Shown here one piece after another: positions 33,538-49,769 of a stretch of 64,000 bases of DNA. Position numbers and translations under genes: made by a program. The notes below the pieces were generated by a model that ran no database searches, was not told the DNA's origin, and worked only from the letters and a program-made list of their open reading frames with translations. Source of the DNA: a virus (taxonomy: Duplodnaviria > Caudoviricetes); IMG/VR virus record IMGVR_UViG_3300029288_000145, positions 12,931 through 76,930 of that record; one strand, 5' to 3'. Within the stretch, counting starts at the first letter, position 1. Each line of letters opens with the position of its first letter.

Positions 33538-33599
33538 ATTATATTGGGATTTTTATATTGGTGTTTGTTTATTTGGCACTTAATTAGGTTGTAATCACA

Positions 33600-33950
33600 C
33601 TACGATGGGATTTTCATTTTGGTTTTTATGATCTCCGCCAGGCGGTCAAATGAAAGGCCGACAATTAAGGCGTATGCGTAACTCCATTCCATGCCGATTA
33701 TTTCCTTAGGGAATCGTATTGTCACGAATAATACAGCTATGGTAGCCAGGAAAGCTATCATCTTTGGCTTGTTGTTGTCCCACCAGTAGCATAAAGAAAA
33801 TTGGTGTGGCGTTTCTGGGTTATGTTTTACAGCAGCTTTGGTCTGGAAATACCACTTAATGAATATACCCAGGGATGCGAATATAAAACTCGTAATTAAT
33901 TCTACTGGGGTTAACGTTCCAAAGAGTGCTGATACGATTTCTCTTATCAT
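33600..33950 (-). CDS. Holin-like protein (three TM)
   Basis: Three hydrophobic segments and a basic C-terminus. Confidence 0.55.
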   Translation of the reverse strand: MIREIVSALFGTLTPVELITSFIFASLGIFIKWYFQTKAAVKHNPETPHQFSLCYWWDNNKPKMIAFLATIAVLFVTIRFPKEIIGMEWSYAYALIVGLSFDRLAEIIKTKMKIPS

Positions 33951-33966: not shown

Positions 33967-34003
33967 CAAAATTAATGAATTATAAGACGGTTTCAAAACT
34001 GAC
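33967..34003 (-). promoter_or_regulatory. Sigma-A type promoter, class B (lysis operon)
   Basis: GTCAGTTTTG, N19, TAATTTTG. Confidence 0.7.
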
Positions 34004-34006
34004 ACC

Positions 34007-37000
34007 TTACATTACCATAAAGAAGTTATGATTTGTTGCTGGTGGCGATGGTGAAGCTGATATTGACAATGACGGGCTACTTGATAATGATGTCGATGGT
34101 GAGTGTGATATTGAGGAACTTATACTCGTACTGAGTGAGGCAGATACCGAACTCGATGGCGACAGACTGATGCTTGAACTTACAGAACTTGACGGTGATA
34201 GACTGATACTTTGACTTATAGAACTAGATACAGAACTACTTGGCGATAATGATATACTGGTCGATGGAGAGGCACTGATGCTTATAGAGATACTAGTGGA
34301 AGGTGATAACGAAATAGATTCGCTTATACTTGTACTCGGCGAGACACTTGCCGATATAGACGTACTCAGGCTTGATGAAATAGATAATGATGGAGATAGA
34401 GATAGAGATGTAGATATTGAACTAGACGGGCTTACCGATGATGAAGGACTACTAGACGGTGAACTTGATATACTTGTAGAATGGGAACCCGAAAACGATT
34501 CAGATATACTTTCCGATGGTGATACGCTTGATGATAATGAATGACTTATGCTTTCAGAAATAGAGGATGATGGTGAACTACTTGGTGATGAACTTGGTGA
34601 TAATGATGGTGATGAACTTACACTCGTGCTTACAGACAATGATGGAGATAGGGATATAGATTCACTAGCTGAACTAGATGGTGATGTTGATACAGATTTT
34701 GACGGACTTATACTTGGTGAACTACTGATGCTTACGGATGGTGATGTCGATGGCGATACACTTCCCGAAATACTACTTGATACAGACAGGCTTATTGACC
34801 CAGAGGGTGAACTGCTCGGACTTAACGATACCGATTCAGATGGACTAACTGATATTGAACTGGAAATTGATAATGATGGCGATAGGCTGATACTTGATGA
34901 GGGCGATAACGATATGGATAATGAAGGACTTAATGATATTGAACCGGATGGTGAACTGGAAGGGCTGGATGATACCGACCCACTTGGACTTGTACTTATT
35001 GATGTACTTACACTTGACGATGGTGACCTGGATACACTCGAACTTGGCGAGGTTGATGGTGATACTGAACTTGATAGTGAACTACTGGGTGATTCTGATG
35101 GTGATGCACTGATGCTGGTACTTATACTTGTACTAGGAGATGTTGAGGCCGAACTGCTTATGGAACCAGAGGGACTTAATGACGGCGAACTAGATACCGA
35201 TAGTGACGGGCTTAGGCTGATGGAGGAACTTATGGATAGGGATGGTGATAAACTTATCGAACTTGATATTGACCTGGACGGTGATAATGACACCGAGGAA
35301 CTTACTGAACTACTTGGACTAAGTGATGGAGAAGTGCTTAAACTATGTGAAACCGAACTGGATATTGATAGCGATGGAGATAACGATACGCTTGACGACA
35401 ATGATGTGGATGGACTCAGTGATACCGAACTTGATACCGAACTACTTATGGATAACGAAGGGCTTAACGAAATACTACTCGATATTGACCGGGAGGGTGA
35501 CGATGATATACTTGAACTTATTGACGTTGAAGGTGACGAACTTATTGACCTGGACGCCGATGAGGAAGGACTGACCGATATTGACGATGATGGTGATACA
35601 GATATTGATGACGAGGGACTTACTGATGTAGATGGAGAAGATAGAATAATTCCCCAGAAATTTACCTTTACAGTGGTGGTGGCCGGAACACTTAAAGATG
35701 CAGAAGGACTGCTAGATAAGGATGATGACAATGAAGAACTGGCGGAACTGCTGACGGAACTACTGGCGGAACTGCTGGGTGATGAAGATACAGAACTCGA
35801 TATTGATAGGGACGGACTTAAACTTATACTTGTACTGGGTGACAGACTTGGTGATGTTGATGGACTGGCTGAACTTGATGGCGAAGAACTTACAGAGCTT
35901 GATATAGATGTTGAGTGTGATCCTGAAAACGATTCCGATATGCTTGATGAAGGTGACACGCTACTTGACGGTGAACTACTTACAGAACTAGATAAAGATG
36001 TACTCGGCGAACTACTTTCAGACGTACTCACAGAACTTGATATACTTGTTGACGGAGATATGCTTTGTGATGGAGATAGACTTGGACTGGATGATAGTGA
36101 AGTTGATGGTGAGTTGGATACAGACGTGCTTACACTCTCGCTTGGTGACGATGATAGGGAAGAACTTATACTCGTACTGGGAGATACAGAACTCGACCTG
36201 GACGAACTTGGACTGCTGGATATTGACGTGGATGGCGATGTTGAAATTGATGATGACAAACTTCGTGACGGCGAATGTGATCTTGATGAACTCACCGATG
36301 TTGAAGGAGAACTGCTTACACTTATTGACGGTGAAGTGGAAACGGAGGATGACACACTTATACTTGGCGACAGACTGATACTTGTCGATGGTGATGTTGA
36401 TGGTGAAACGCTGCTTGACACAGAACTACTCGGCGATGAACTTATTGACCGGGATGGTGACAAGCTGGGACTGGACGATACTGATTCTGATGGACTAGAT
36501 GATACAGAACTACTTATTGATGTGGAAGGACTGACAGAAGATGATAATGAGGTGCTTACAGAGGATGATACAGATTCACTCTGGGAAGAGCTGGGACTGG
36601 ATGACACACTCCTACTTGGACTTAACGATATAGATAATGATGGAGACAGGCTTGGTGAACTCGAAATTGATGAACTTGGACTTAATGAAATAGAACTGCT
36701 GATACTTAATGACGGCGACAATGACACTGAACTTGATATACTACTTGATATTGAGCTACTAATACTGGTCGATGGTGAGGCTGATATTGAAGAACTCACA
36801 CTTGTACTTGGTGAAACCGAACTGGATACAGAAGAACTTGGTGAAGAACTCAGTGAACTACTTGGTGACAACGATACCGATGAGGATAATGAGGTACTTA
36901 CAGAGGACGATAATGACCGGGACACTGACGTTGATGGCGACACCGAACTCGACACAGACGTACTCGGTGACGTACTTACACTTGTACTTACAGAACTTGA

Positions 37001-38611
37001 CGGGCTTGTTGATACTGATGAACTTGGGGAGGTGGATAATGAACTGCTTATACTTTCACTTATTGACGAACTTATTGAACTGGATGGACTGCTTGATATT
37101 GATAGACTTGGCGATAATGATATTGAACTACTTTCACTACTACTGATAGAACTACTTATAGATAATGAAGGACTTAACGAGGCCGAACTGGATGGTGATA
37201 AACTGATACTTGAAGAAATAGATAATGATGGTGACAGGCTTACGCTACTTGACGGCGACAGACTGATACTTGTTGATGGTGATAGGCTGGCCGATGGACT
37301 AGCCGATACCGATGTTGATATTGACGAGGATATTGATGATATGGGATTGCCCAAAAATATAACGACATACGCTCCATATATTCCTATTTCACCATTAACA
37401 GGGACAACAACGGTGGGTAGATAATTTTTGCCATCATTAAGGGTTAATGCTACCGTCCTTACCCTTTCCTTATTTGAATTAGCGAATTCTATTTTGGAAT
37501 TTGTTATATGGGCATCTACGGTGCCTGAGTCAGCATTATCCTCACCCAGATCGACATAAATATCACCATCAACAGATTCGTTTCCAGTGACCTCAAAATA
37601 CGGCGTATATGTAGAGTATGCGTTGGCATCAAAAAACATCCTTCCCTCTGTGTGTTCCTGCGCCACACCTATACCCGCATAACCCCGGCTGATTCTATAA
37701 TAAACGTCTATGGCGGTAACATTTATTACCCGGAGATATAATCTTGCCTCACTTATCCTGGCGTTGTAACTTTCACTGCCAGATTTTATTTTTACCTCTA
37801 TCAGATCGCCGTTATCAAAGTTTGTAGCATTGTTGGCGAAACTGACCGAACAAAGTGTTGGCGTGGTACTGTTGGTAGATACTTCACTTCCGGTTATTGC
37901 GTTTCCTGACGAATCATATAAACAGGCATATGCTGTGGATGCTGCATTTTCAGAGTACATAACAACCTCAAATGTCCATACATTACCAGAACCAATTGTA
38001 GAGAACCTGTTTTCATCCTTCTTAAAATATGCGTATCTTTTTGGTATATCTTGGGTATAAGATGTGCTTGTTGTGGAATCAACAGCAGTACCATTAAACC
38101 GTGAGGATTCTCCAAAATCACTTCCAATAAGGGGTATTTGTATTCTTGTATTTACGAACTGATTCTGTTGTACTATTATCCGTGATGAATATACCTTTAC
38201 CTCGTTATTTACCGATGTGCCGGGTATTTCTATGTCATAATCATTTGCACCACCAACCATAGATAGTGCCGCTGTGCGAAACCGGGTTGGCACCGTTGTC
38301 CCTCCCGGAACGGGTATGGCATCAATAATACTAACACCATTTACCAGGCGTGGGGAATAACTGCCGGCGTTGTCGTTTGTGGCAACTATTTCCCAGTAAT
38401 ATGTGCCATTATAGTAATCAGCGGTATCAATATTTATCCTTGTCCTTGTAAATGTTGTATCGGTGGTTGAACTGGTACAGGTAAGGCTACAATTATCCAG
38501 GGGTATTTCAAATATTGGGGAACCAGCACTTGGGCTTGGCGAACTCGACAGTGATCTTGAAGGAGATACTGAGGCTGAAGGTGAACTCGATATGGATGTT
38601 GATGTAGACAT
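34007..38611 (-). CDS. Serine-rich repeat virion-region protein (1534 aa; about 400-aa beta domain + about 1100-aa S-X-S stalk)
   Basis: Alternating Ser with P/I/V/L/T/S; one VPATTTVKVNFWGIIL spacer; hydrophobic NFFMVM C-terminus. Confidence 0.8.
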   Translation of the reverse strand: MSTSTSISSSPSASVSPSRSLSSSPSPSAGSPIFEIPLDNCSLTCTSSTTDTTFTRTRINIDTADYYNGTYYWEIVATNDNAGSYSPRLVNGVSIIDAIPVPGGTTVPTRFRTAALSMVGGANDYDIEIPGTSVNNEVKVYSSRIIVQQNQFVNTRIQIPLIGSDFGESSRFNGTAVDSTTSTSYTQDIPKRYAYFKKDENRFSTIGSGNVWTFEVVMYSENAASTAYACLYDSSGNAITGSEVSTNSTTPTLCSVSFANNATNFDNGDLIEVKIKSGSESYNARISEARLYLRVINVTAIDVYYRISRGYAGIGVAQEHTEGRMFFDANAYSTYTPYFEVTGNESVDGDIYVDLGEDNADSGTVDAHITNSKIEFANSNKERVRTVALTLNDGKNYLPTVVVPVNGEIGIYGAYVVIFLGNPISSISSSISTSVSASPSASLSPSTSISLSPSSSVSLSPSLSISSSISLSPSSSASLSPSLSISSSISSSESSSISLSPSLSISSSPSSSISSSISESISSSLSTSPSSSVSTSPSSSVSTSVSTSPSTSVSSSVSPSTSVSRSLSSSVSTSLSSSVSLSPSSSLSSSPSSSVSSSVSPSTSVSSSISASPSTSISSSISSSISSSVSLSPSLSISSSISLSPSSSISSSPSLSPSLSISLSPSRSVSSSPSSSQSESVSSSVSTSLSSSVSPSTSISSSVSSSPSESVSSSPSLSPSRSISSSPSSSVSSSVSPSTSPSTSISLSPSISVSSSVSTSPSISVSSSPSTSVSSSRSHSPSRSLSSSISTSPSTSISSSPSSSRSSSVSPSTSISSSLSSSPSESVSTSVSNSPSTSLSSSPSLSPSQSISPSTSISSSVSTSESSSPSTSLSSSVSSSPSSSVSPSSSISESFSGSHSTSISSSVSSSPSSSASPSTSPSLSPSTSISLSPSLSISSSVSSSPSSSASSSVSSSASSSLSSSLSSSPSASLSVPATTTVKVNFWGIILSSPSTSVSPSSSISVSPSSSISVSPSSSASRSISSSPSTSISSSISSSPSRSISSSISLSPSLSISSSVSSSVSLSPSTSLSSSVSLSPSLSISSSVSHSLSTSPSLSPSSSVSSSVSLSPSRSISSSISLSPSLSISSSISLSPSLSVSSSPSLSPSGSISSSASTSPSTSISTSISASPSESPSSSLSSSVSPSTSPSSSVSRSPSSSVSTSISTSPSGSVSSSPSSSPSGSISLSPSLSISLSPSSSISLSPSLSISSSISVSPSESVSLSPSSSPSGSISLSVSSSISGSVSPSTSPSVSISSSPSISPSKSVSTSPSSSASESISLSPSLSVSTSVSSSPSLSPSSSPSSSPSSSISESISHSLSSSVSPSESISESFSGSHSTSISSSPSSSPSSSVSPSSSISTSLSLSPSLSISSSLSTSISASVSPSTSISESISLSPSTSISISISASPSTSISLSPSSSVSSSISQSISLSPSSSVSSSISLSPSSSVSASLSTSISSSISHSPSTSLSSSPSLSISASPSPPATNHNFFMVM

Positions 38612-40440
38612 TACCCTTGTTGATATACCCTACAGGCTACTGTATCGGCACCATCTTTATAATTGGTTAAATCAGAAATTGTTGCTGTTAATGTAAAGTC
38701 CGTGTCCTCCGGGGAGGTGTTGTCGGAATCAATGGTATCCCATGTTAGTGTTGATCTATTATATATTTGTAGATATACGGTCACCAGTGGTGGGGGACTA
38801 TTAGTTTGTAATACACAGGTAAATATTCCAGAATTAAACGTGCCTACAAAATTTTTAAACTGGTGAATAGCATATTTCCCAGATGCACTTTGATCTACCC
38901 AGTCGTTATCTACTGCTGCAACATATATATAATCTATTGCCGAATATGACGTGCTTAGGTCATCATCTGCCGCTGGTAATGCCAAGTAGTCTCCCCGTGA
39001 ATAGTTTTCTGTGGAGGGTGACGTTGATGAACTTATGCTTGTGGATGGAGATAGGGATAATGATGAACTTGGTGAACCTGATGGTGAACTACTTAAACTT
39101 ATACTTACCGAACTTGATAATGAACTACTTAGTGATAACGATGGTGATTTGCTTATACTACCACTTACCGAACTACTAACACTGCTTGATGGTGATGGAC
39201 TGGCCGATATTGATGTTGATATTGAACGACTTGGAGAATGTGAGGCTGAGGCTGATGGTGAACTGCTTATGCTACTACTGGGTGTGCTTACTGCAATATA
39301 TGAAACCAATCCGGTTTTTACATACCTTGCTGTAGGGGTTCCGCTTGGTGTAACATCTATATCTATCGCATCGTTTGATGTAATATTATCTGTGTGAATA
39401 GTATCGTTTGCTGTTGTTGCTGCATCTGCAATAGTACATGTAAGAGTGCCATTTCCAGCATTTATACGAAGTGTTATTGCATAAGATTTTCCTGCTCCTG
39501 GTGTCCCACTTAAAGCTGCATATAGTTTTTTAAATACTGAAGTATATCCACGTTGATATGAATTAGCCTCTGTTGATATTGGCGAAAATAAAATAGTTCT
39601 ATTACAGTAATGATACCTTGTAGCACTTGTTGAGGTATTAACATTAGTACCACCAAGCAATAAACTCTCCCCGTTTATGGTTGCAACAAAAGATAATTTT
39701 CCATAAATTCTCGGTCTTGCCGATGGAGTGTTTAAAGGCACAATTTCTAATGAAACCAAATCCCCTGCAACCACGGCAACATTATGGGTCGTATCGCTTC
39801 CCGTGGTATCGTCTGCTGTTATCGTACAGGTTAATGTTGTTGCTACCCCGTTAAGATAAAGAGTAAAAGAATACGCATCTGGCGAAGTTCCGGGGTCGGC
39901 ACTTAATGAGGTAAAAAGCCTGTTTATCGTCCCTGCCGTTGGAATTATTTGAGACACCTGCACTTCTGTTGTTGATGTAACGCCTACACCGCCTCCCGTT
40001 ACGCCCTGATATTGTGTGGCTGAATTATCACACACACCACCAAACATCAAATTACTTTCATTGGCTGTTGTGCCATCGAATTTTAATACCCATGAACAGT
40101 TTGTGACTGTTGGTGTATTTGTAGGCACTGATTTTAAATAAATAATATCTCCTTCAGCAAAAGCTACTCCTGCACCTGAATAAGTACCGCCAACAGCAGC
40201 ATCGGCAATATGAACTGTTATAGCCGTATCAACTCCGTTTTTAACAACGGTAAAATCATAAGAAGTACCCGCCCCCGGTGCTGCACCAAGTTCTACATAG
40301 AAATAACTATACGTTCCAACGCAGGCAAGTTGCTTTAATACAGCCACATTAGTATTCCATGTGTCACCACCTTGGACTACGTTGTAACTATTGGCACTAT
40401 TTGATAGTGTCCCGCCCCTGCCTGTTATGCCTTGTATCAT
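38611..40440 (-). CDS. Virion-region protein with internal Ser-rich linker
   Basis: Gly/Thr-rich repeated beta domains, about 95-aa S-X-S linker (about 39010-39290), C-terminal globular domain. Confidence 0.75.
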   Translation of the reverse strand: MIQGITGRGGTLSNSANSYNVVQGGDTWNTNVAVLKQLACVGTYSYFYVELGAAPGAGTSYDFTVVKNGVDTAITVHIADAAVGGTYSGAGVAFAEGDIIYLKSVPTNTPTVTNCSWVLKFDGTTANESNLMFGGVCDNSATQYQGVTGGGVGVTSTTEVQVSQIIPTAGTINRLFTSLSADPGTSPDAYSFTLYLNGVATTLTCTITADDTTGSDTTHNVAVVAGDLVSLEIVPLNTPSARPRIYGKLSFVATINGESLLLGGTNVNTSTSATRYHYCNRTILFSPISTEANSYQRGYTSVFKKLYAALSGTPGAGKSYAITLRINAGNGTLTCTIADAATTANDTIHTDNITSNDAIDIDVTPSGTPTARYVKTGLVSYIAVSTPSSSISSSPSASASHSPSRSISTSISASPSPSSSVSSSVSGSISKSPSLSLSSSLSSSVSISLSSSPSGSPSSSLSLSPSTSISSSTSPSTENYSRGDYLALPAADDDLSTSYSAIDYIYVAAVDNDWVDQSASGKYAIHQFKNFVGTFNSGIFTCVLQTNSPPPLVTVYLQIYNRSTLTWDTIDSDNTSPEDTDFTLTATISDLTNYKDGADTVACRVYQQG

Positions 40441-40443
40441 TTC

Positions 40444-40674
40444 TTAGTTTATCTTTTTCGTCTTTGTCCAGTCAATTGTTGTTTCTGAACCTTTTTTAGT
40501 AATGATTTTTTCTTTAATTATCTCCTGTTTTTGTAATTCCATCCATCCGTTTAGCTTGACATTATTATCAATCAGATAAGCCCATGCCTCTGCACGTTCT
40601 TCTTCTGATGGATTTAACAGTGTAATTACACTTTCATCATTAAGTATGATGTTTGTTTTCCTGTTGCTTATCAT
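40444..40674 (-). CDS. Hypothetical protein
   Basis: 76-aa ORF in operon. Confidence 0.55.
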   Translation of the reverse strand: MISNRKTNIILNDESVITLLNPSEEERAEAWAYLIDNNVKLNGWMELQKQEIIKEKIITKKGSETTIDWTKTKKIN

Positions 40675-41584
40675 GTTTTTTTATTTTTATCAGATCATCG
40701 TCAGTCCATCCCGGAATCGGCCAGAATTTCTCCACAAGCCAACTTAATGGGTGAACTCCATTAAATTTGTTGTTAAGCCACAGGTCTTTTGAATACCTAC
40801 GTGCCTTTTCCTGTGCTTTCCCTGACATGGGGTAGGGAAATGAGAAGTCACCTCCCTGGGTGCGGAACATATGTCCGAACCATGTTTTTTTATTACACAC
40901 CAACCGGCCTCCGGTCAGCCACGTTTTACAGGCTATTTCCGTTCCCTGTTGTCCCCACGAACCGTGTTCTTCATCACAAAAGTTATACTTCCAGTATCTC
41001 TCCCTTGTCAACATCCAACAGGCACCGATAAGGGACATGTTTTCAACAATGTCCCCTTCTGGCTTGCGGTCATTCCAATATTGGAAATGTAGGTTGTTGT
41101 CAAACCGCCACTGGGAGGTTTTTATTCCCCTATTCGATTTCCAGATAACTTCTTTATGTGTTGGCTTTCCACATTCTTTACAGACGCCGGAGGGACTCAT
41201 ATATCTCCTGTGTCCATCCTCACACACCCAGTCGAATACGTGCCAGTTATACATGAGTGGTACAACAGTCCAGTCATCCTGCATGTCGGCCATTAGTTTG
41301 ACATCAAACCCTTCGTCAAAGGCACAGTGGGCATCACACTTCATAACGTATTTTGCCTGTGATAGCCGACAACATTGATTGGTAATTGCCCTCTGGCCTA
41401 TTGCTTCGGGTACATAAAATATTGTCAGGTCGGGATGTTGCGGTATGGGAATATGATTCCACTTACCGTCCAAACCAACGATTATTTCTGTGGCACCTCG
41501 TTTATTTTTAAGAATGTCCTCAATAGTGTTGAGTAACCATTCCTCATTTCGTGCCGGTATTAATATGGACAGGTCGTACTTCAT
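40640..41584 (-). CDS. Glycosyltransferase family 2
   Basis: LSILIPARNE, IIVGLDG, MKCDAHC (DxD-like), SLIGACWML, WGQQG.E. Confidence 0.88.
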   Translation of the reverse strand: MKYDLSILIPARNEEWLLNTIEDILKNKRGATEIIVGLDGKWNHIPIPQHPDLTIFYVPEAIGQRAITNQCCRLSQAKYVMKCDAHCAFDEGFDVKLMADMQDDWTVVPLMYNWHVFDWVCEDGHRRYMSPSGVCKECGKPTHKEVIWKSNRGIKTSQWRFDNNLHFQYWNDRKPEGDIVENMSLIGACWMLTRERYWKYNFCDEEHGSWGQQGTEIACKTWLTGGRLVCNKKTWFGHMFRTQGGDFSFPYPMSGKAQEKARRYSKDLWLNNKFNGVHPLSWLVEKFWPIPGWTDDDLIKIKKHDKQQENKHHT

Positions 41585-42102
41585 AGATTTTTCAGGTCTT
41601 TAAAGTTTGATAAAACTGTTGCCCAGGGACGACATTCCTTCCAGTCGAACCTGTATTTGAAATTGGAATACATTTCTTCCGTATATCCATAGGTATCCGG
41701 TTCTTCTGTGTCATGTAAAACAAGGAACTCTGCACTGTCCTTAAACCTGACAACATCACGTCCCCGGTATCCCCAGGTATAGTCCTTTTGTGGTACGGCG
41801 TGGTCTATAAGTATAACTCCAGCCCTGTCTTTAATGTTTACGTCTGTCATCCAGTCATTTACCTTTACGATACGGTGCATCTTGCTCTGGAACTGCTTGG
41901 CATACAGGTAGAATTGTTCTTCGCTTTCATAGGTGATAAGTTTGCGGCCAAATCCTTTACACATCCAGTGTAAGAATGGCGTACTACCAATGCCACAGCC
42001 GAACTCAATGACCGTTCCCGAACTATTGATAATAGTTTCATAGAGCATCCACATATGGGAACTCCATCCTTTGCCGACATTAACTTTGTGTTTAAGATAC
42101 AT
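41581..42102 (-). CDS. Class I SAM-dependent methyltransferase-like protein
   Basis: VIEFGCGIGST motif I, ILIDH, LVLHDTE. Confidence 0.75.
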   Translation of the reverse strand: MYLKHKVNVGKGWSSHMWMLYETIINSSGTVIEFGCGIGSTPFLHWMCKGFGRKLITYESEEQFYLYAKQFQSKMHRIVKVNDWMTDVNIKDRAGVILIDHAVPQKDYTWGYRGRDVVRFKDSAEFLVLHDTEEPDTYGYTEEMYSNFKYRFDWKECRPWATVLSNFKDLKNL

Positions 42103-42799
42103 ATAGATAGTTTTTTTTAAGGTTCGTTATTTCTCCCCAGTAGGGGACATCTGTTAATTGACTTTTCATATCCGCCCTAACACTCCAGCTAACACCCTTG
42201 CCGGTTTTAAATGTTATACACGGATTTTCAAGAGATACCCTTACCGTGTTTTTGTCATGGGTGGTAAATCGCCTCCGGAATGGCATATTATGATTTTTAT
42301 CGCCGGCAAACCATTGTGGCATACCCTCAAAGAATATTTCACATTGTTTGATAAATAGTTCCCTGTCAATAATCTGGGCACCATCGGAATCACTTTTAGG
42401 GTAGTAGTATGGATACTCTTTGGCATCAAATACTACCTGTATATTTTTCATCCTATATGCTTTACCAGGTTCACTGGGTTCAAAGGCAAAGTAATCGGGT
42501 GGATACAGATAGTCAGATTCAGCAAACACCAGATATTGAGAGGTGGCTTCCAAGGCTCCTAGATATATTTGCCGGAACTCGTTAAGATAACTCTGGCCAA
42601 CATCACCAACACATATATTGTGCCCTATATCCATAGGTTTTTGGGTAACACTTATCATTGGCAGCCCACACCTATTATGCAACATTGTTTCAACAACCTG
42701 TCTTTCAAAACGTGGGTTTTCCCTGTTGCTGCTGTAATATATTATTGTTTTATTTAACATTTGCATTACAAGTTTTACATAGTGGCATATCAAAATCAA
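42092..42799 (-). CDS. GT-A fold glycosyltransferase (paralog A)
   Basis: TIIYYS...ISVTQKP...RQIYLG...YLVFAESDYLY. Confidence 0.7.
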   Translation of the reverse strand: MILICHYVKLVMQMLNKTIIYYSSNRENPRFERQVVETMLHNRCGLPMISVTQKPMDIGHNICVGDVGQSYLNEFRQIYLGALEATSQYLVFAESDYLYPPDYFAFEPSEPGKAYRMKNIQVVFDAKEYPYYYPKSDSDGAQIIDRELFIKQCEIFFEGMPQWFAGDKNHNMPFRRRFTTHDKNTVRVSLENPCITFKTGKGVSWSVRADMKSQLTDVPYWGEITNLKKNYLYVS

Positions 42800-43484
42800 G
42801 ATTCATGTGCCTTTTCCTTAATGGTTTGGCAATTTTAATGATCTCAGCGAGACTTTGTTTAGTAATATCGCCAAGGATAACTTCGCCGTTGTAGTCCAGG
42901 CAGCACATTGACACTCTTCCATCCCATAATATACAGGTATGTTTGCTGAAGGCGTAACAGGGCACCCTGACCACTCCCTCTTTTTGTTTGGGGTCGTCAA
43001 AGTAGTCGTTAGCCCTGTAAGTGCTTACTTTTGACCGGTGTCCCCATTTTTTCTTAAAGGCTTTTTGCTTTTCAATGTCTGTATCAAGAAATACACGAGA
43101 TATTCTTACATAGAAATCGGCATTGTCAAGCAGTTTCCTTATGTTTTTTTCATAAGCATCTACCCCGTTGTCACTGCAATTTATTCCGTTCAGACATTTG
43201 TATTTCAGCACTCTGTCAACATCCATAAGTCCTCCGTTTGTAGACAGGTTTACTTTCACACCCTGTTCTTCCATATAATCCAACCATTCGTATATCCTGT
43301 CAAAAGCAAAGGGGTCACCATACAGATACGGACTGTACTGTTTGATATTGTTTTTCTTACCTTCGGAAATGATGTGGTGAAATAATTCATCACTCATTTC
43401 TCCCTTTGGTCTCGTCACACGAAGGCCAGGACAATAGGAACACTTCAGGTTACACTTGTAGGAACTTTCAAATATAAGTCTCAT
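42750..43484 (-). CDS. Radical SAM enzyme with SPASM/Twitch domain
   Basis: CNLKCSYC, YGDPF, STNG, C-terminal PC...ILWDGRVSMCCLD...C..C. Confidence 0.88.
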   Translation of the reverse strand: MRLIFESSYKCNLKCSYCPGLRVTRPKGEMSDELFHHIISEGKKNNIKQYSPYLYGDPFAFDRIYEWLDYMEEQGVKVNLSTNGGLMDVDRVLKYKCLNGINCSDNGVDAYEKNIRKLLDNADFYVRISRVFLDTDIEKQKAFKKKWGHRSKVSTYRANDYFDDPKQKEGVVRVPCYAFSKHTCILWDGRVSMCCLDYNGEVILGDITKQSLAEIIKIAKPLRKRHMNLDFDMPLCKTCNANVK

Positions 43485-44212
43485 TAGCGAAAATGTTTTA
43501 AAATTTCTTCAGCCCTTCCCCAGTATGGGATGTCATAGGCTTGTATCTCTCCATAGCTTTTGCGGTGTTTCCTCTGCCGTTCTTCACTTGCCCAGTCGTG
43601 GTTTACCTGTATGAAGGCAACCTTGGCAGCATGGGTGTCGCAACAATTCCTTAACCCCACACCCAGATTTCTCTCAACCATACCCCGGCCAACTTCACCA
43701 ACCCTGTTTTCAGGGCATCCATCAGGCCATTTTGTATAACGTTCTTCTAGGGCATCAATAAGATACTCTCTAGGAGCGATCAGGGCGGCGTTGCTTAAAC
43801 GGTTCCTCCAGTGATAGACCGGAATACCCCAGGTGAATAACGTTGCCCTGTTGCGATCATACAGAACCTCATTATCACATGGACGCCTGAAGGTGAAGTG
43901 AAATTCGTGATACAGGCAGTCATCCTCGGCTACCGCTACATATTTTGTTTCCGCCACCTTACAAGCTCTTAACATTTGCCTGTAGATGTTGTCAGTACAC
44001 TTTTTTCCATCATCCAGAATGTTGTGCCCGAAATTTAACGGCTCCCTGGACACGCTGATAATAGGAGTGTCCTTTATTGCCTCCAGTAATACCTCTTTTT
44101 GATAAGCGGCAAAGTGTGGCTTATGCTTTTCAAGCATTGAGGCCGTTAAATAGATTACTGTCATTTGTTCTATCATACGAATAATTTTAAGTATTTGTCC
44201 GGTGATTCCCAA
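43484..44212 (-). CDS. GT-A fold glycosyltransferase (paralog B)
   Basis: TVIYLTA...ISVSREP...NIYRQMLRA...VAVAEDDCLY. Confidence 0.75.
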   Translation of the reverse strand: MGITGQILKIIRMIEQMTVIYLTASMLEKHKPHFAAYQKEVLLEAIKDTPIISVSREPLNFGHNILDDGKKCTDNIYRQMLRACKVAETKYVAVAEDDCLYHEFHFTFRRPCDNEVLYDRNRATLFTWGIPVYHWRNRLSNAALIAPREYLIDALEERYTKWPDGCPENRVGEVGRGMVERNLGVGLRNCCDTHAAKVAFIQVNHDWASEERQRKHRKSYGEIQAYDIPYWGRAEEILKHFR

Positions 44213-44868
44213 TAGGGTATAGTATATGCCTGTATTCTTTTCATCTGTTTTTTATGCCTGTGTTCAATAGCCTCTTTGCCAGTGTTTTCGTTTGTGAAGT
44301 AGTCGTGATCAATTTGTATAACTCCATTATAACTCCAAAATGGGAGTGTTTTTGCCGGGGTTAGTCCTAAATACTTTTCTGATTTACCTATTTCGTTGCA
44401 GTGTTCTACCGGCACCAGTGGGTATTTATCAAATCTTTCTTCGAGACTTTTTATCACAGCTAACCGGCCTCCGACCATAAAGGCGTTTATGTAACTCTGT
44501 TTCTTTTCCATAGAGTAGATAGGCTTTGCCCAGGTATAAAGGTTCCACCTGTACTGATTATATGCTATCTCATCTATTTGCGGTGTAAAGGCGAAAAAGT
44601 GATCAGAAGCATATAAACAGTCATCCTCGGCTATGGCAATAAACGGTGTTGTTGCCAACTTTGCGCCTCTTAATATCTGCCTGTAGATATTATTGACGCC
44701 AAGTCCTCCGTCCTGGATGATGTTTTTGTCACCGAACTTCATGGGTTCACGAGATATGGTTATTATTTCACACCCATTGGAGGCTGTTAATAGAACATCC
44801 ATCTGGTAACTATGCCATTTTTCAGGAACCCGGTTTGCTGTTAAATATAATATTGTTAAGTTACTCAT
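44173..44868 (-). CDS. GT-A fold glycosyltransferase (paralog C)
   Basis: TILYLTA...ITISREP...NIYRQILRG...IAIAEDDCLY. Confidence 0.75.
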   Translation of the reverse strand: MSNLTILYLTANRVPEKWHSYQMDVLLTASNGCEIITISREPMKFGDKNIIQDGGLGVNNIYRQILRGAKLATTPFIAIAEDDCLYASDHFFAFTPQIDEIAYNQYRWNLYTWAKPIYSMEKKQSYINAFMVGGRLAVIKSLEERFDKYPLVPVEHCNEIGKSEKYLGLTPAKTLPFWSYNGVIQIDHDYFTNENTGKEAIEHRHKKQMKRIQAYTIPYWESPDKYLKLFV

Positions 44869-45773
44869 ACTGTTTTCCTTATTATTGCTGTTTCATAACC
44901 AAGAGCTTTAAGTATCCCTGCCCGGTGGCATCCGTCTATAAGGCGGTTGTCGGTACGTACTACAAGAGGACTTTTCAATCCTTTGAGCTTTACATTATTA
45001 TACAAGTCCAGTTTACTTAATAAGAAATTGTCTGCTTCTTTTTCAGACCATTTTTTACTCCTGTATTTGCGCAAAAAGTTGGCGTATTCGGACTTCATGG
45101 GACTATGGCTGGTATAGAAATCCATTGTGCTGTCACTATTTCCTATTGATTTAATAGGCACCCGGTCAAGGTGTTTGCTTTTAAATATGATAGACGACAT
45201 CTCCCTGGGTGACGGGTCTCCTTCTGGATTTATCCAGGGAATATAACCGGTTTCCTCCCAGTCTTTGAAGTATTCCCTGAGAGCTTCTATGGATGATAAC
45301 GCCCTCCATGATTTGTATGTTGTTTTTACGGTGACGATAAGGCAATATCTGGTCTTGTATTGTAGTTTGTCTAGATATTCAAGCCAATCAATGATTCTTA
45401 GGTGGTAGTGGACGTTTACAAGTACAGTAACATCAGCCAATGGAAGGAAATTAGTGGCTTTTGTTAGGTCGTCTAATATTATGTTGTAATCAAGGTCATG
45501 ATCATCACGGTATTTTATTCCTCGTTCCCATGCGCCTTTATCTGATTCAACTCCTATTACCCGTTTATATCCAAGTTCTTTTGCGAGACCCAGATATAAT
45601 CCGGCATTGCACCCACCTTCAATGTATGTCAGTTCTTTACATAGTTTTGGTAGTAAGGGAAGTACAAAGTAGTTCCATTTTCCCACGTCCCAGAATTTGC
45701 TGTTTTTTTCAAGTTCATACCTTTCGTTTGTGGGATCGCCAGGCAGGTGTTGATATACGTTGTATTCTTTCAT
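44865..45773 (-). CDS. SAM methyltransferase fused to a ParB/Srx-like C-terminal domain
   Basis: IEGGCNAGLY...VIGVESD; C-terminal GLKSPLVV...RLIDGCHRAGILKALG. Confidence 0.7.
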   Translation of the reverse strand: MKEYNVYQHLPGDPTNERYELEKNSKFWDVGKWNYFVLPLLPKLCKELTYIEGGCNAGLYLGLAKELGYKRVIGVESDKGAWERGIKYRDDHDLDYNIILDDLTKATNFLPLADVTVLVNVHYHLRIIDWLEYLDKLQYKTRYCLIVTVKTTYKSWRALSSIEALREYFKDWEETGYIPWINPEGDPSPREMSSIIFKSKHLDRVPIKSIGNSDSTMDFYTSHSPMKSEYANFLRKYRSKKWSEKEADNFLLSKLDLYNNVKLKGLKSPLVVRTDNRLIDGCHRAGILKALGYETAIIRKTV

Positions 45774-46547
45774 TTATATCCCCCACCTTGGTTTAATTAT
45801 ATTGTTATAGTAATTTTCCCATGTCTCCCGGCTGTAATTGAATGATGCCCTGGAAAGTTCCCCAGAATAATGGTGTGTGCGCTTAAAACTCCTGTGTTTG
45901 TGTGCGTGGAAGGTGTTTTTGTTTAACATCAACTTACCGCCACGTACCCATGTTTTAAACACCATCTCATGACTGTCCTGGTAGTGCGTACCATATCCCT
46001 CGGATTGTAATTCCTTGATACAGAAATCCCACCACGATTTTTTCATAATCCATACAGAACCCTGGATGGCCATGTTCTCGGCAATGGCAACATTTTTTAA
46101 TTGTTCATCCCGTTCCGGCCATGCCACAGAACTGAATTTTTGTTCCTTGCCGACAATTAGTAGTTTGCAGAAATTTACCGGTGGTAAGTCCATTATTTTC
46201 CATTTCTCCGGGTCGAGATAGTACCTTGTTGGTGCCACTATCCAGTTGTCCTCAAATGTTTCGGTAAGTTTTTTGTCGTATCCTTCACTAAACAGGCAGT
46301 GTTCATCAGTTCTCATGATGAATTCTCCCTTGGCAACGGCAACTCCATGATTTATAGCATTACGCATACCATGTGCTTGTCCGTTGTGGACGATTTTTAT
46401 TCTCCTGTCATTTCTCAATTGTTTTTCCGGCCAATAGCCATCTAAGACTGCAATGATCTCAACATCTCCCTCTGCATTGTCAAGTAATGAGTCAATGGTT
46501 GGGTGAAGAAACGGGTCTTTGTAGCTTGGAATTATTACAGAAAGCAT
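45774..46547 (-). CDS. Glycosyltransferase family 2 (paralog of 40640-41584)
   Basis: LSVIIPSYKD, IIAVLDG, NAINHG, MRTDEHC, IQGSVWIM. Confidence 0.88.
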   Translation of the reverse strand: MLSVIIPSYKDPFLHPTIDSLLDNAEGDVEIIAVLDGYWPEKQLRNDRRIKIVHNGQAHGMRNAINHGVAVAKGEFIMRTDEHCLFSEGYDKKLTETFEDNWIVAPTRYYLDPEKWKIMDLPPVNFCKLLIVGKEQKFSSVAWPERDEQLKNVAIAENMAIQGSVWIMKKSWWDFCIKELQSEGYGTHYQDSHEMVFKTWVRGGKLMLNKNTFHAHKHRSFKRTHHYSGELSRASFNYSRETWENYYNNIIKPRWGI

Positions 46548-46561
46548 TTATTATTATTTTA

Positions 46562-47437
46562 TTATGGTTCATTTGCTATTGATACAAAGTCAAAGGTGTC
46601 CAAATTTGTGTCTCTTATGAATCCAAGATACATACATTTACCGGCAATGGTTGTCCCTGGTAAAAGTCCACACTTGTCTTTAAATTTTCCACCATATGTT
46701 AATAACCTGGGCACACCGTTGTCATATATCCTGATCCTTTTGTTTCTTCCATTGGCAACAACGCCGGTGGGATTGTTTATGAGTAGGTCGGTGTCAAGTG
46801 CCGTGAATTCAATGTCGTCATAGGAACCGAAGTCTGGCGTAAATGGACTGGTGGTGGTGGTTAATGTCAATACCCTGGGTGCGGGAATAACGGGTGTTGT
46901 CAGTTCTAATCCGGTTTCACCGGCATTTACTGTAGGAACTTTGCCGGCATTACCGGTATAGGATTTTGTTATGCTGTCGGTAAGACTTAGAAATGATTGT
47001 ACGGAATAAATATCATCCGGCCATGAGTAGGTTAAATCCACCTGTGGCAGATATTGGGCTTTTATCGTTATGACGAATATTATAGCAACCGGAGGAGACG
47101 CAGGAGTACCACTAAGAGCGTAAGCACCTGAAGTATTAAGAGTAGTCGTAATAAGAACGCCACCCGCTGTATATGCAGGGGTTTCTGTAGGTACACCATT
47201 AATTTCAGTAATAATAGCATCAGCCAACCCCGGAAACCTGTCGGGTGAGATTGTGTAAAGCGTAGGAGATACTGAGCCACCCCCGACTTTTGGGACTGTA
47301 ACTGTTCCTGTGTTTGCTGTAATACTGTTCCAAATCGGGATAACATAGTCTATGTTTTTTAATAAGTTAATATCTGTTTCATAGTCCTTGTGGTCGTGCA
47401 TTAACCATCCAAACCGCTTGTCTATTTGTATAGCCAT
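46562..47437 (-). CDS. Tail fibre/virion structural protein candidate
   Basis: Thr/Pro/Gly-rich beta character; YTGNAGKVPTVNAGETGLE linker typical of fibre proteins. Confidence 0.6.
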   Translation of the reverse strand: MAIQIDKRFGWLMHDHKDYETDINLLKNIDYVIPIWNSITANTGTVTVPKVGGGSVSPTLYTISPDRFPGLADAIITEINGVPTETPAYTAGGVLITTTLNTSGAYALSGTPASPPVAIIFVITIKAQYLPQVDLTYSWPDDIYSVQSFLSLTDSITKSYTGNAGKVPTVNAGETGLELTTPVIPAPRVLTLTTTTSPFTPDFGSYDDIEFTALDTDLLINNPTGVVANGRNKRIRIYDNGVPRLLTYGGKFKDKCGLLPGTTIAGKCMYLGFIRDTNLDTFDFVSIANEP

Positions 47438-47440
47438 AAA

Positions 47441-47728
47441 TTAAGATGTTTTGTGAAGTACCCATCCGGTATATGATCTTAATGTTGCTAATACGCCAGC
47501 ACCAGTGTCTATGGGGTTATCATACCTGTCACTTTTATAACACTCGAACTTTGCTATACCAGAAGAACTTTCGTCAATTCTTATTACCCTCCATTTGGGG
47601 TCTGTAAATGCTGTGCCTTGTTCAGCCGGATAACACATATATGTCATGCTATTGACGGTATCCTCGACAATATATGGGATGCTGAATACATCCCGCAACA
47701 CCTGTAATATTTCCTGGTCGATCTTCAT
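47441..47728 (-). CDS. Small virion-region protein
   Basis: 95-aa ORF with KWRVIRID motif. Confidence 0.55.
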   Translation of the reverse strand: MKIDQEILQVLRDVFSIPYIVEDTVNSMTYMCYPAEQGTAFTDPKWRVIRIDESSSGIAKFECYKSDRYDNPIDTGAGVLATLRSYTGWVLHKTS

Positions 47729-48183
47729 TATGCAATGGCAATGTATGTTAATGTTCCCGGAGCAACGGCGGTGATAGCAAACCCATTCTTGGTCAGACTT
47801 GATGGAACGCCAACACCAACACTATCAACATCGTTTATTAATAATGTGTATGTTGCAGTAGGAAGTGGTGCATCAAATGTGATTGTATTTGCACCTGTGG
47901 TAAGTTCAACCTGTCCCTCGGCAATGCTTGTTTCGTGGCAGTATCCCTCAATGGCCGTAACGAAGTCGTCAAATGTTGCTGTGGATGGTGACGATGTGTC
48001 AAGCCAGTTCAAAATTACCTTGGCTGGTTCATAAAAGCCATCACCTGATATGTATAGGTGTACTTCGTTTTTTGCCGGAACCGGGTTTATTGAACTTATG
48101 TATCCCTTATTGACGATACGTTTGCGCCCTGAATTCCTTAATATTGTTATGTAATCCGTTCCGTTTGTTACTGATGTAGTCAT
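47728..48183 (-). CDS. Small virion-region protein
   Basis: 151-aa ORF; C-terminal domain resembles gp53-like fibre modules. Confidence 0.55.
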   Translation of the reverse strand: MTTSVTNGTDYITILRNSGRKRIVNKGYISSINPVPAKNEVHLYISGDGFYEPAKVILNWLDTSSPSTATFDDFVTAIEGYCHETSIAEGQVELTTGANTITFDAPLPTATYTLLINDVDSVGVGVPSSLTKNGFAITAVAPGTLTYIAIA

Positions 48184-48210
48184 TTTTATACTTTTTAATT
48201 GTTATTAATA

Positions 48211-49716
48211 TTAACCTGCACCTGATGGACTGGTTGATAAGGATGTTGATACTGAGGATGATATACTTGTTGATGGACTAAATGAAACCGAACTTGATAC
48301 AGAGGTAGATTCACTGCTTGATATTGATGTCGATGGGCTTACAGATGAGGATGGACTGCTGGATATACTTGTGGATGGCGATATTGATATGGAAGTAGAA
48401 AGACTTGTTGATATTGAAGTCGATGGACTTGTAGATGGTGATGTGGATATACTGGTTGAAGGACTTGTAGAAATTGATGTGGAGGGACTGATAGATATTG
48501 ATGTCGATATGCTGGTAGATGGACTATTTGATATAGATGTTGAAGGACTGAGGGAGATTGATGTGGACGGTGATGTTGATGGACTGGATGATACCGAAGT
48601 TGAAAGACTTGATGATATTGAGGTTGAGGGGCTGATAGAACTGGATAAAGAACTCGATATACTGCGTGACGGGGAACTTGACCTACTTAGCGATGGCGAT
48701 GTTGATATAGAAGTACTTGGTGATATTGATACACTGCTCGACAAACTGCGTGATGGTGAAGTTGATGGACTTAATGACGGTGATGTTGATACTGATGTCG
48801 ATGGACTCAATGACGAGGATATACTTGACGACACACTTATTGACGGCGATGTTGATATTGAGGTCGAGGGTGATATTGAAACGCTACTGGAAACACTTGT
48901 CGATGGTGAACTGGATACACTGGTCGATGGGGAAGTACTGATACTTGTCGACACCGATGTTGATACCGAACTGGATACACTGGTTGATGCAGAACTTGAT
49001 ATTGAACTGGAAGGACTGGTTGATATACTGCTTGATATTGACAACGAAGGGCTGACAGATAATGATGGGCTACTGGATACCGATGTAGACGGACTGTGTG
49101 ATATTGAACTGGATATACTTGTTGAGGGTGAAAATGCGTCCCTGTGTGTAACCTGCCAGATGTTTGCAACAACATTTATGGCTCTTTCCATTACGGTGCC
49201 GGCAGCCGTCCAGCTTTCCCGGTAGTCACCATTTGACAACGTGCCATTTACGGTGTAGTATATGTAATCACCGTCAACATACGTGTTCCCGTGTGGGTTT
49301 GATGCGGCGATTATCTTGGCAAGTAATTGTGTAGTATTCAGGTCAATAGACATGAGGCACTGACCTAATTTGGTATCATTGTATGTAAGCAATGACATTG
49401 TTGAATTAACCGGCATTGCTTTGAAATAAATTATTTCATCACAACTTATGATATTCAATGCGTTTACCAATTCACCACCCTTGGTAAGTACAGGAAGTTC
49501 AACTCTTGTTCCTGGGACAAACTCATCGACCATAGCCAATAAGCTGGCATATGTTTCGGTTGTAATGTATTTGAAGGTCAGAAAGGCTTCCTGGTATTCA
49601 AATTGACGGGTACTCCCCTTGTCTCTGATGTTTGACATACGACCCACATTGAAATACTTAGTCTCGCTGTGTGCTGTATTGTTCTTTTTTGTGGTGGTTA
49701 AATAGGCGAACTGCAT
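48211..49716 (-). CDS. Virion-region protein with about 300-aa C-terminal Ser-rich tail
   Basis: About 195-aa N-terminal domain followed by S-P-S-T-S-I-S repeats (about 48225-49125). Confidence 0.75.
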   Translation of the reverse strand: MQFAYLTTTKKNNTAHSETKYFNVGRMSNIRDKGSTRQFEYQEAFLTFKYITTETYASLLAMVDEFVPGTRVELPVLTKGGELVNALNIISCDEIIYFKAMPVNSTMSLLTYNDTKLGQCLMSIDLNTTQLLAKIIAASNPHGNTYVDGDYIYYTVNGTLSNGDYRESWTAAGTVMERAINVVANIWQVTHRDAFSPSTSISSSISHSPSTSVSSSPSLSVSPSLSISSSISTSPSSSISSSASTSVSSSVSTSVSTSISTSPSTSVSSSPSTSVSSSVSISPSTSISTSPSISVSSSISSSLSPSTSVSTSPSLSPSTSPSRSLSSSVSISPSTSISTSPSLSRSSSPSRSISSSLSSSISPSTSISSSLSTSVSSSPSTSPSTSISLSPSTSISNSPSTSISTSISISPSTSISTSPSTSISTSPSTSPSTSISTSLSTSISISPSTSISSSPSSSVSPSTSISSSESTSVSSSVSFSPSTSISSSVSTSLSTSPSGAG

Positions 49717-49731
49717 TGCTTTTTTTGTTTA

Positions 49732-49769
49732 CAAAATTAGTAAATAATAACTGCGTTTCAAAGTTGAGG
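49732..49769 (-). promoter_or_regulatory. Sigma-A type promoter, class B
   Basis: CTCAACTTTG, N19, TAATTTTG; overlaps the stop of the 2408-aa gene. Confidence 0.65.

Follow-up and report, generated by a model that had tools for sequence, protein, structure and literature searches.

The window, by which we mean the whole 64,000-nucleotide stretch of DNA that was analysed, belongs to a 76,930-base record (completeness 66%, CheckV) from an uncultured phage of Bacteroidota-type bacteria. A presumed 15.7-kb unit, with large structural genes on one side and candidate lysis genes on the other, comprises the following features in the order of presumed transcription.

49732-49762, minus strand: promoter-like site of Bacteroidota type (TTTG ... 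TAATTTTG) preceding P0003, at which the presumed unit begins
48211-49716, minus strand: P0003, 501 aa; 195-aa head, then a 304-residue S-X tract (48220-49131) to the C-terminus
47728-48183, minus strand: 151-aa protein with no assigned function
47441-47728, minus strand: 95-aa protein with no assigned function
46562-47437, minus strand: 291-aa protein with no assigned function; weakly matched by a PHROG family of virion structural proteins
45774-46547, minus strand: GT2a, 257 aa; soluble GT-A transferase, D-x-H, GT27-like; candidate initiating O-glycosyltransferase
44865-45773, minus strand: MT302; weak class I methyltransferase-like N-terminal part and ParB/Srx-like C-terminal part
44173-44868, minus strand: GT-A paralog 1, 231 aa; invariant E-x-D; candidate elongating transferase
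43484-44212, minus strand: GT-A paralog 2; listed from TTG, an internal ATG probably being the true start
42750-43484, minus strand: radical SAM enzyme, 244 aa; CX3CX2C and four C-terminal Cys; BtrN-like twitch-domain dehydrogenase by sequence
42092-42799, minus strand: GT-A paralog 3; listed from TTG, with an internal ATG the probable true start
41581-42102, minus strand: MT173, putative small methyltransferase; E-x-G-x-G motif only (PDB E 0.11)
40640-41584, minus strand: GT2b, 314 aa; soluble, GT27-like; D-x-H, WG..E...W..GG, GH-x-FR and a Cys-rich insert
40444-40674, minus strand: 76-aa ORF occupying the apparent gap between GT2b and P0002
38611-40440, minus strand: P0002, 609 aa; triple jelly roll (1-387), S-X tract (388-477; 39010-39279) and 132-aa C-terminal domain
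34007-38611, minus strand: P0001, 1534 aa; S-X run (2-29), triple jelly-roll domain (30-425), stalk and 11-residue tail
33967-33997, minus strand: following promoter-like site, which precedes the candidate lysis genes and closes the unit

Both promoter-like sites conform to TTTG-N-TAnnTTTG, a pattern observed 15 times in the window against 4.2 expected, and none lies between them. The same TTTG and TAATTTTG boxes are found in the sites preceding P0003 and the candidate lysis genes, and the transferases, the radical SAM enzyme and the putative methyltransferases are all bracketed by these two sites. The initial annotation had placed a promoter at 49732 and five glycosyltransferases downstream of it; a promoter-like site does precede the whole cluster, and the five transferases comprise two GT2-family proteins (Pfam) and three paralogous GT-A-like proteins (E-x-D motif, Atlas fold).

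The same annotation had described three co-oriented genes with S-X repeats. Using a threshold of at least eight consecutive S-X dipeptides in a six-frame scan of the whole record, we found five runs, all on the minus strand and confined to these three genes, with no strict S-X alternation elsewhere in the 76.9 kb. P0001 contains three runs (residues 2-29, 426-975 and 992-1523; 1,110 residues in total), the last two forming a stalk of 1,098 S-X residues (34043-37336) interrupted once by 16 residues, while P0002 and P0003 contain a single run each, of 90 residues (388-477) and 304 residues (196-499), respectively. S, P, I, L, V and T account for most X positions, and the tracts use a mixture of all six serine codons. 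Tandem repeats at the DNA level are short, with a mutual likeness of only 67-88%, so the periodicity is evidently maintained at the protein level and does not reflect recent repeat expansion. The reading frame is fixed by P0002, the tract of which is flanked in frame by two domains conserved in other phages.

The most informative enzymes of the unit are GT2a and GT2b. We report here that, by sequence profile, they match the eukaryotic polypeptide GalNAc-transferases (GT27) over the catalytic domain. The solved structures matched are GalNAc-T4, T1, T9, T12, T2, T7 and T10 (E 5e-12 to 2e-5), in alignments that span profile positions 6-257, i.e. the whole catalytic domain, and that take in D-x-H, the WGGEN-type stretch and GH-x-FR; other GT2 structures align over the first 100 or so positions only. 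D81-x-H83, which aligns with the D-x-H of GalNAc-T4 and T1, is invariant across 14 GT2a/GT2b sequences, and in the second catalytic block W, E, W, GG and H-x-x-R are conserved and the GGEN core is partly kept. Both proteins end after the catalytic domain and have PF00535 as their only Pfam domain; a ricin-type lectin domain and an N-terminal membrane anchor are absent from them (Pfam, hydrophobic-segment scan). The lead transferases of the cluster thus resemble enzymes that O-glycosylate Ser and Thr residues of polypeptides, in keeping with the O-glycosylation that had been proposed for the locus. GT2b is the best marker of the system.

It had also been suggested that the co-occurrence of S-X genes and transferase clusters across viral genomes be examined, and here the association proved strong. 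S-X ORFs were present in 18 of 23 loci with the radical SAM cluster and in none of 20 control loci (Fisher p = 1e-7), and in all 12 of the radical-SAM-cluster loci that extend past GT2b. Among further loci found through GT2b, 67 of 80 contained an S-X ORF; where lineages had at least 4 kb of sequence downstream of GT2b the figure was 39 of 45, with a median gap of 338 nt. The pairing of the two transferases with an S-X tract recurs in dozens of other phage lineages, and contigs from MAGs show the same gene order. The tracts, the enzyme families and their co-occurrence can be regarded as established. The tract-bearing heads are mostly unrelated between phages, and where cluster-free phages have homologs of the P0001 or P0002 head, these lack a tract, from which it follows that the tract itself, and not the head, travels with the enzymes.

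These observations bear on whether the tracts are acceptors at all. They might instead be unmodified flexible or silk-like linkers, the transferases acting on phage DNA or on envelope glycans of the host, in the latter case for superinfection exclusion or receptor masking. GT2-family enzymes commonly make polysaccharides, and 13 of the 80 GT2b loci have no Ser tract in the stretch examined, some of them with 4-8 kb downstream. Moreover, there are precedents, as phage transferases that alter O-antigen are well known. Precedents also exist for transferases that act on DNA (bioRxiv 10.1101/2023.12.21.572611). Against this, the transferase pair tightly and repeatedly adjoins S-X tracts on unrelated heads, and its match is to polypeptide transferases over the complete catalytic domain, not to polymerising synthases. 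The cassette enzymes contain no hydrophobic segments, all being soluble, and no flippase, polymerase, oligosaccharyltransferase, lipid-carrier transferase or sugar-nucleotide enzyme was matched among the cluster ORFs (Pfam/NCBIfam). As to DNA, no thymidylate-synthase-like hydroxymethylase or Tet/JBP gene was found in the 66%-complete record, in a search where the Tet control gave no signal. We consider the linker explanation decidedly unlikely.

The GT27-like phage enzymes form a family that numbers over 4,000 protein clusters and some 400 IMG/VR stretches. Relatives of the cluster were not found among 50,697 GenBank phage records; two faecal-phage matches to the radical SAM enzyme (27% identity) have neither cluster nor tract. 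A system of CPR bacteria was considered and rejected, as only 5 of 301 sampled genomes of the phylum gave a match, four of them with a full GT2b; the CPR matches examined lie on contigs of 7-37 kb, with phage-like gene order in two of three. The radical SAM patterns matched once in 185,579 species genomes, on an 8-kb contig.

The globular parts of the S-X proteins offer some indication of where these proteins may act. The heads of P0001 and P0002 are triple jelly rolls resembling C1q/TNF single-chain trimers and CBM6/36 modules, a likeness of modest score (VIA Z 5-5.6), and they share this common plan, yet no profile homology was detected between them. In the proteins that contain head homologs, fn3, beta-helix, Laminin_G_3 and Big_1 domains occur as well, and the 132-aa C-terminal domain of P0002 follows S-X tracts in two other phages too. 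The P0003 head has only an Atlas lead (Phage_min_tail, score 0.82), and no relatives of it were found in IMG/VR or in a 5.8-billion-protein set at 275-877 aa. Inspection of the termini of all three proteins revealed neither a signal peptide nor LPXTG. Both the place of the genes and the folds of the domains are compatible with surface or fibre proteins, and we infer membership of the virion from gene position, the modest fold likeness and the domain company. Alternatively, the S-X proteins may be glycosylated but not part of the particle, being released at lysis or remaining intracellular; they might then serve, for instance, as a sugar-rich matrix, decoy or adhesive, helping progeny or obstructing other phages. 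In keeping with that explanation, no recognised domain for virion attachment is present in P0001 or P0003, and of 107 complete S-X ORFs about half end in the tract. However, the S-X genes lie between large structural genes and candidate lysis genes and share promoter-like boxes, their heads resemble fibre-head and carbohydrate-binding folds, and the beta-helix, fn3 and Ig-like domains of their homologs are typical of tail fibres and spikes; we regard a role away from the particle as unlikely. The initial annotation had envisaged stalks carrying a distal binding domain, an arrangement that applies to P0002, in which a domain does lie beyond the tract, but not to P0001 and P0003, in which the tract is C-terminal and the globular part N-terminal.

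The remaining enzymes differ in how clearly they can be assigned. The profile of the three GT-A paralogs had no match in the PDB by sequence, and they are candidate GT-A-fold proteins on the basis of Atlas, the E-x-D motif and fusions. Natural fusions of GT2b with a GT-A protein and of a methyltransferase with GT2b were found, the former tying the paralogs to one pathway with GT2b. The radical SAM enzyme was corroborated by Pfam (Radical_SAM and SPASM), but the two methyltransferases named in the initial annotation stand at the level of weak matches or a motif (for MT302, Pfam E 0.0065, below the cut-off, and PDB E 0.003). A methyltransferase-GT2b fusion elsewhere bears clear methyltransferase Pfam domains. 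The radical SAM enzyme and methyltransferases are accessory to the cluster: 80 related loci have the transferase pair and S-X tracts without radical SAM.

We also report that the radical SAM enzyme is, by sequence, a BtrN-like twitch-domain dehydrogenase. Of PDB entries it matches BtrN best (E 1e-13), in an alignment that covers both halves, and C11, C15, C18, C176, C194, C236 and C239 are invariant in the homolog alignment; the copy in the window lacks a 14-residue segment found in its seven aligned homologs. BtrN converts an aminocyclitol hydroxyl to a ketone (PMC10337720). The enzyme could, on the other hand, act on protein, converting tract serines to formylglycine in the manner of anaerobic sulfatase maturases or changing the backbone in some other way, which would give a cross-linkable stalk. 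Like BtrN, those maturases are dehydrogenases of the radical SAM class, peptide and protein maturases are among the weak NCBIfam matches (the sulfatase maturase at E 4e-4), and the presumed substrate is rich in serine. Nonetheless, BtrN, a small-molecule dehydrogenase of equal size, is by far the best solved match, and S-x-P-x-R, the sulfatase motif, fits the register of S-X alternation only where X is Ser. In addition, absence of the enzyme from the 80 tract-keeping cassettes indicates that it is not needed for the core function, and we think a protein-acting enzyme very unlikely.

Our working hypothesis, which we regard as fairly probable, is that the block 34007-49762 is a cytoplasmic, mucin-type protein O-glycosylation cassette of the phage with the S-X tracts as acceptors. 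Because the pairing of GT27-like enzymes with S-X tracts recurs in so many phage lineages, the phage probably coats its own fibres or hairs with sugar. Late in infection, one transcript would give rise to the three acceptor proteins and the enzymes, the S-X tracts presumably forming long unstructured stalks. From homology and linkage we infer that GT2a and GT2b would initiate the chains on the serine hydroxyls of the tracts, the sugar probably being a HexNAc donated by a host UDP-sugar, and the three GT-A paralogs may then lengthen the chain. The BtrN-like dehydrogenase might turn a sugar hydroxyl into a ketone and the two putative methyltransferases might tailor the glycan, steps that would be optional, most related cassettes being without them. 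The predicted product is a set of bottle-brush glycoprotein hairs, the 1,098-residue stalk reaching approximately 200-270 nm if extended like mucin. The hairs would be anchored on the particle via the triple jelly-roll heads, and the P0002 tract would link two globular domains.

More tentatively, and with somewhat less than even confidence, we propose that these enzymes constitute a very large, so far undescribed phage family of soluble GT27-like proteins that mucin-type O-glycosylate dedicated S-X 'hair' proteins; we found no description of phage GT27 or serine-repeat glycosylation systems in the searchable literature. If this is so, many environmental phages carry sugar-coated filaments of up to a few hundred nanometres, and the eukaryotic-seeming initiators of mucin glycosylation have a deep reservoir in bacterial viruses, which bears on their origin. 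Documented glycosylation by phages of their own proteins is limited to a few mycobacteriophages, and the present system would be a second, enzymatically different and far more widespread one with dedicated mucin-like acceptors. Sugar-coated hairs could alter the sticking of phages to mucus, particles and capsules, resistance to proteases or grazing, and recognition by antibodies. Small soluble GT27-like enzymes and a simple repeat acceptor are also possible tools for making mucin-like glycoproteins in bacteria.

The locus had been likened to those of the serine-rich-repeat proteins (SRRPs) of Gram-positive bacteria (GspB, Fap1 and PsrP), which involve gtfA/gtfB and an accessory Sec system (PMC6973325). 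In both cases an S-X dipeptide stalk of hundreds of units adjoins globular regions (binding regions in SRRPs), the substrate gene is clustered with several transferases, and cytoplasmic glycosylation is stepwise without a lipid carrier, as proposed here for the phage. However, the cluster enzymes of the phage are GT-A proteins, whereas the SRRP initiators GtfA and GtfB are GT4 enzymes of GT-B fold, and PF00534, the GtfA/GtfB type, had no match in the whole record, control genomes being positive. Sec components (SecA2/SecY2/Asp) were not matched in the ten ORFs between P0003 and P0002 (Pfam/NCBIfam). The X positions of the phage tracts hold P, S, I, L, V or T, and the genes belong to a late operon of a phage. 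Without GT4/GtfA-B, accessory Sec, signal peptide or LPXTG, the likeness to SRRPs is functional only; it does not extend to homology, and the kinship is with mucin-type GT27.

In some mycobacteriophage glycosylation clusters methyltransferase partners are known. Mycobacteriophages (Che8, Corndog and Myrna) use transferases of their own to glycosylate capsid and tail tube proteins (Freeman et al. 2023, as cited in PMC12363180), short C-terminal extensions of the subunits being modified. The phage described here likewise encodes transferases in or beside its structural module, but its presumed acceptors are dedicated proteins with tracts of 90-1,100 residues and its promoter type is that of a Bacteroidota host. 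A tblastn search of the 50,697 phage records with GT2a (E 1e-3) gave no mycobacteriophage relative.

With BtrN of butirosin biosynthesis (PDB 4M7S/4M7T; PMC10337720) the radical SAM enzyme shares a length of approximately 250 aa, CX3CX2C, four C-terminal Cys of matching spacing for one auxiliary cluster in a shortened SPASM domain, and alignment of both halves. Identity is about 25% or less, and the phage copy sits in a presumed protein-glycosylation cassette, so it probably acts on a nucleotide sugar or on one bound to protein.

A further close parallel to the proposed pathway is the initiation of mucin-type glycosylation by eukaryotic GT27 enzymes on Pro/Thr/Ser domains. GT27 enzymes favour Thr and have a lectin domain and a membrane anchor. 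The GT-A catalytic domain aligns end to end, the acceptor is probably a long unstructured tract rich in Ser and Pro, and two paralogous initiators stand side by side. In contrast, the phage enzymes, of 257-314 aa, are cytoplasmic, phage-encoded and free of lectin domain and anchor, GT2b has a Cys-rich insert, and the acceptor is not Thr-rich but has Ser at every second position.

Scanning the entire record in six frames for strict alternation of serine with a second residue (S-X) returned five runs only, all in three minus-strand genes: P0001 (34007-38611, 1534 aa; runs of 28, 550 and 532 residues), P0002 (38611-40440, 609 aa; 90 residues) and P0003 (48211-49716, 501 aa; 304 residues). The S-X repeats that the initial annotation had described in three co-oriented genes are therefore real, amounting to 1,110, 90 and 304 residues. 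The X position is mainly S, P, I, L, V or T, and all six serine codons are intermixed in the tracts. Tandem Repeats Finder detected only short arrays that were 67-88% alike, which argues that the pattern is maintained at the protein level and does not reflect fresh DNA expansion. The sequence on either side of the P0002 tract is in frame with it and recurs elsewhere, the N-terminal part at 38-43% identity in four phage contigs and the C-terminal domain in two others, so that the serine frame is the translated frame.

The S-X genes enclose a series of enzyme genes, which are listed here with their neighbours:

49758-56984, minus strand: 2408-aa protein directly upstream of the cassette, highly charged and Lys/Glu-rich
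45774-46547: GT2a, a 257-aa GT2-family transferase
44865-45773: MT302, a methyltransferase-like protein
44173-44868, 43484-44212 and 42092-42799: GT-A paralogs 1-3
42750-43484: radical SAM enzyme
41581-42102: MT173, a second methyltransferase-like protein
40640-41584: GT2b, a 314-aa GT2-family transferase
40444-40674, minus strand: 76-aa ORF filling the gap between GT2b and P0002 and overlapping the end of GT2b
32708-33950, minus strand: candidate lysis genes following the cassette, with their own promoter-like site

Minus-strand promoter-like sites are present at 49732-49762 and 33967-33997, with none in between, and the genes of this cassette (34007-49762) abut or overlap, the single apparent gap of 199 bases being occupied by the 76-aa ORF, for which no function was found. 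It is plausible that the cassette forms a single late transcript. Its genes sit between large structural genes and the candidate lysis genes; the latter encode a DUF6549 protein of 194 aa, whose N-terminal part contains a strong hydrophobic segment, and small proteins of 81 and 116 aa. The 2408-aa protein, which gave no family match, is a possible tape-measure-like or internal protein of the virion.

The record is linear, 76,930 bases long and 66% complete by CheckV (the window being bases 12931-76930), and encodes a large terminase and a primase-helicase; it is a tailed phage. The terminase (18405-21926, minus strand, 1173 aa) is split by an intein that contains Hint and LAGLIDADG homing-endonuclease domains, and it is distantly related to terminases of Flavobacterium and Cellulophaga podophages. 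Matches to the Bacteroidota promoter pattern TTTG-N17-23-TAnnTTTG number 15, where 4.2 would be expected (15 or more in 0 of 100 shuffles), and this enrichment points to a Bacteroidota host. The sites, among them those at 3504, 9212, 23967, 31818, 33967 and 49732, often form back-to-back pairs.

The count of five transferases made in the initial annotation stands, with two recognised through curated profiles and three through their fold and motif. Pfam identifies GT2 domains in GT2a and GT2b, and the three remaining proteins (231-242 aa) are mutual paralogs (E 1e-15 to 3e-48) with an invariant E-x-D in a beta-strand context; an Atlas model of one of them superposes on GT2-family proteins with TM 0.69-0.88. 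A profile built from the GT2a and GT2b sequences of the present phage and others was compared with solved structures. Its best relatives were the polypeptide GalNAc-transferases T4, T1, T9, T12, T2, T7 and T10 (E 5e-12 to 2e-5), which align along the full length of the catalytic domain, with D-x-H, the WGGEN-type block and GH-x-FR included; for chondroitin synthase, GalT1 and other GT2 enzymes the match was confined to the first ~100 positions. At least 4,246 protein clusters are related to GT2b (E 1e-10 or better), and the forms of ~520 aa are natural fusions of GT2b followed by a GT-A paralog. Fusion proteins among the relatives are P0166-P0168, P0173, P0232 and P0245, the last having a methyltransferase domain ahead of GT2b. 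GT2b and its relatives also have an insert at residues ~119-140, absent from GT2a, whose invariant C121, C135 and C138 (W-x-C ... C-x-x-C) may form a small zinc-binding knuckle.

The radical SAM protein has radical SAM and SPASM domains by Pfam, and its profile matched BtrN best (E 1e-13, both halves aligned; second match 1e-5), which it resembles in size and in a four-Cys auxiliary site. All seven aligned homologs contain a 14-residue segment that is missing from the window's copy after residue ~112; the copy retains its cluster Cys residues. The class I methyltransferase match of MT302 is weak and sub-threshold in Pfam; this protein has a ParB/Srx-like C-terminal part, and MT173 has methyltransferase motif I only. 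The last ~50 residues of MT302 include a ParB/sulfiredoxin-like D-G-x-H-R stretch (PDB 5k5a, E 1e-3), an odd partner for a glycan methyltransferase.

The initial annotation had proposed testing whether S-X genes and transferase clusters co-occur across viral genomes, and in the loci compared they do. Loci retrieved with the radical SAM protein (21 from IMG/VR, one 8-kb MAG contig and the window; about 20 lineages below 80% identity) share a uniform gene order of GT2a, radical SAM enzyme, GT-A paralogs, methyltransferase and GT2b. An S-X ORF was present in 18/23, and after GT2b in all 12 that extend far enough; about ten have a small head-plus-tract protein, i.e. a globular domain joined to a tract, before GT2a. 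No tract or cluster gene was found in 20 control loci (about 300 kb) containing homologs of the P0002 head (4), homologs of the P0001 head (14) or distant radical SAM genes (2) (18/23 versus 0/20, Fisher P = 1e-7). The GT2b profile matched 411 IMG/VR stretches, and the best 80 of these (74 lineages at 90% identity) had same-strand S-X ORFs in 67, GT2a in 64, a GT-A paralog in 32, MT173 in 19 and the radical SAM enzyme in none. In 45 lineages at least 4 kb of sequence follows GT2b, and 39 of these had an S-X ORF in that stretch (median gap 338 bases); tracts reached 1,308 residues. These counts define a core of the pair related to polypeptide GalNAc-transferases (GT27) together with the S-X proteins, with the radical SAM enzyme, methyltransferases and additional transferases as variable tailoring parts. 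In the phylum of the MAG hit, 5 of 301 sampled genomes gave matches, four with full GT2b; the fetched matches came from 7-37-kb contigs, two of the three with the same gene order and S-X ORFs. In loci L045, L050, L053, L056, L066, L085, L087, L090, L097, L101 and L117, small proteins just upstream of GT2a (a ~110-aa head and a tract) have a common ending, roughly S-P-S-P-S-F-P-F/D, possibly a recognition or capping signal.

Tract-bearing heads are mostly unrelated from phage to phage, and homologs of the P0001 and P0002 heads in cluster-free phages have no tracts, indicating that the tract is a module moving with the enzymes. Both heads were predicted by AlphaFold as three tandem jelly rolls (pLDDT 82 for P0002, 93.7 from 30 sequences for P0001), with no profile homology between them, and Foldseek paired both with single-chain C1q, adiponectin and TNF-family trimers (E 1e-10 and 2e-7). 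The P0002 head also matched viral C1q-domain, collagen-like, minor tail and tail fibre proteins, and VIA related the P0001 head to CBM36/CBM6 modules and a TNF-like lectin at modest Z (5-5.6). Members of the P0001 head family (445 representatives) occur alongside fn3, right-handed beta-helix, Laminin_G_3 and Big_1 domains, the partners found in fibres, spikes and adhesins. The earlier picture of a stalk with a distal binding domain could apply to P0002, which has a domain past its tract, but not to P0001 and P0003, whose tracts, like those of about half of 107 complete S-X ORFs, reach to within 40 residues of the C-terminus.

We consider it rather probable that the cassette directs O-glycosylation of the S-X tracts by its own enzymes. 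No hydrophobic segments were found in the cassette enzymes and no signal peptides in the three S-X proteins, and the system fits cytoplasmic, lipid-carrier-free O-glycosylation with GT27-related initiators and S-X tracts as acceptors. A thymidylate-synthase-like gene, whose presence would hint at hydroxymethyl-base DNA glycosylation instead, was absent from the record, which is 66% complete. That the S-X products are carried on the particle appears less certain than their glycosylation, and the identity of the sugar and the role of the hairs are matters that we infer. No description of such a phage system was found in the literature searched; glycosylation of mycobacteriophage virions is a known precedent (PMC12363180). 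The cassette lies outside the serine-rich repeat glycoprotein (SRRP)/accessory-Sec family, with no GT4-type gene across the record, so that the SRRP analogy of the initial annotation does not extend to kinship, and the phage system differs from GT27 enzymes in having neither their lectin domain nor their membrane anchor. In its proposed way of working, however, the cassette is akin both to SRRP loci and to mucin biosynthesis.
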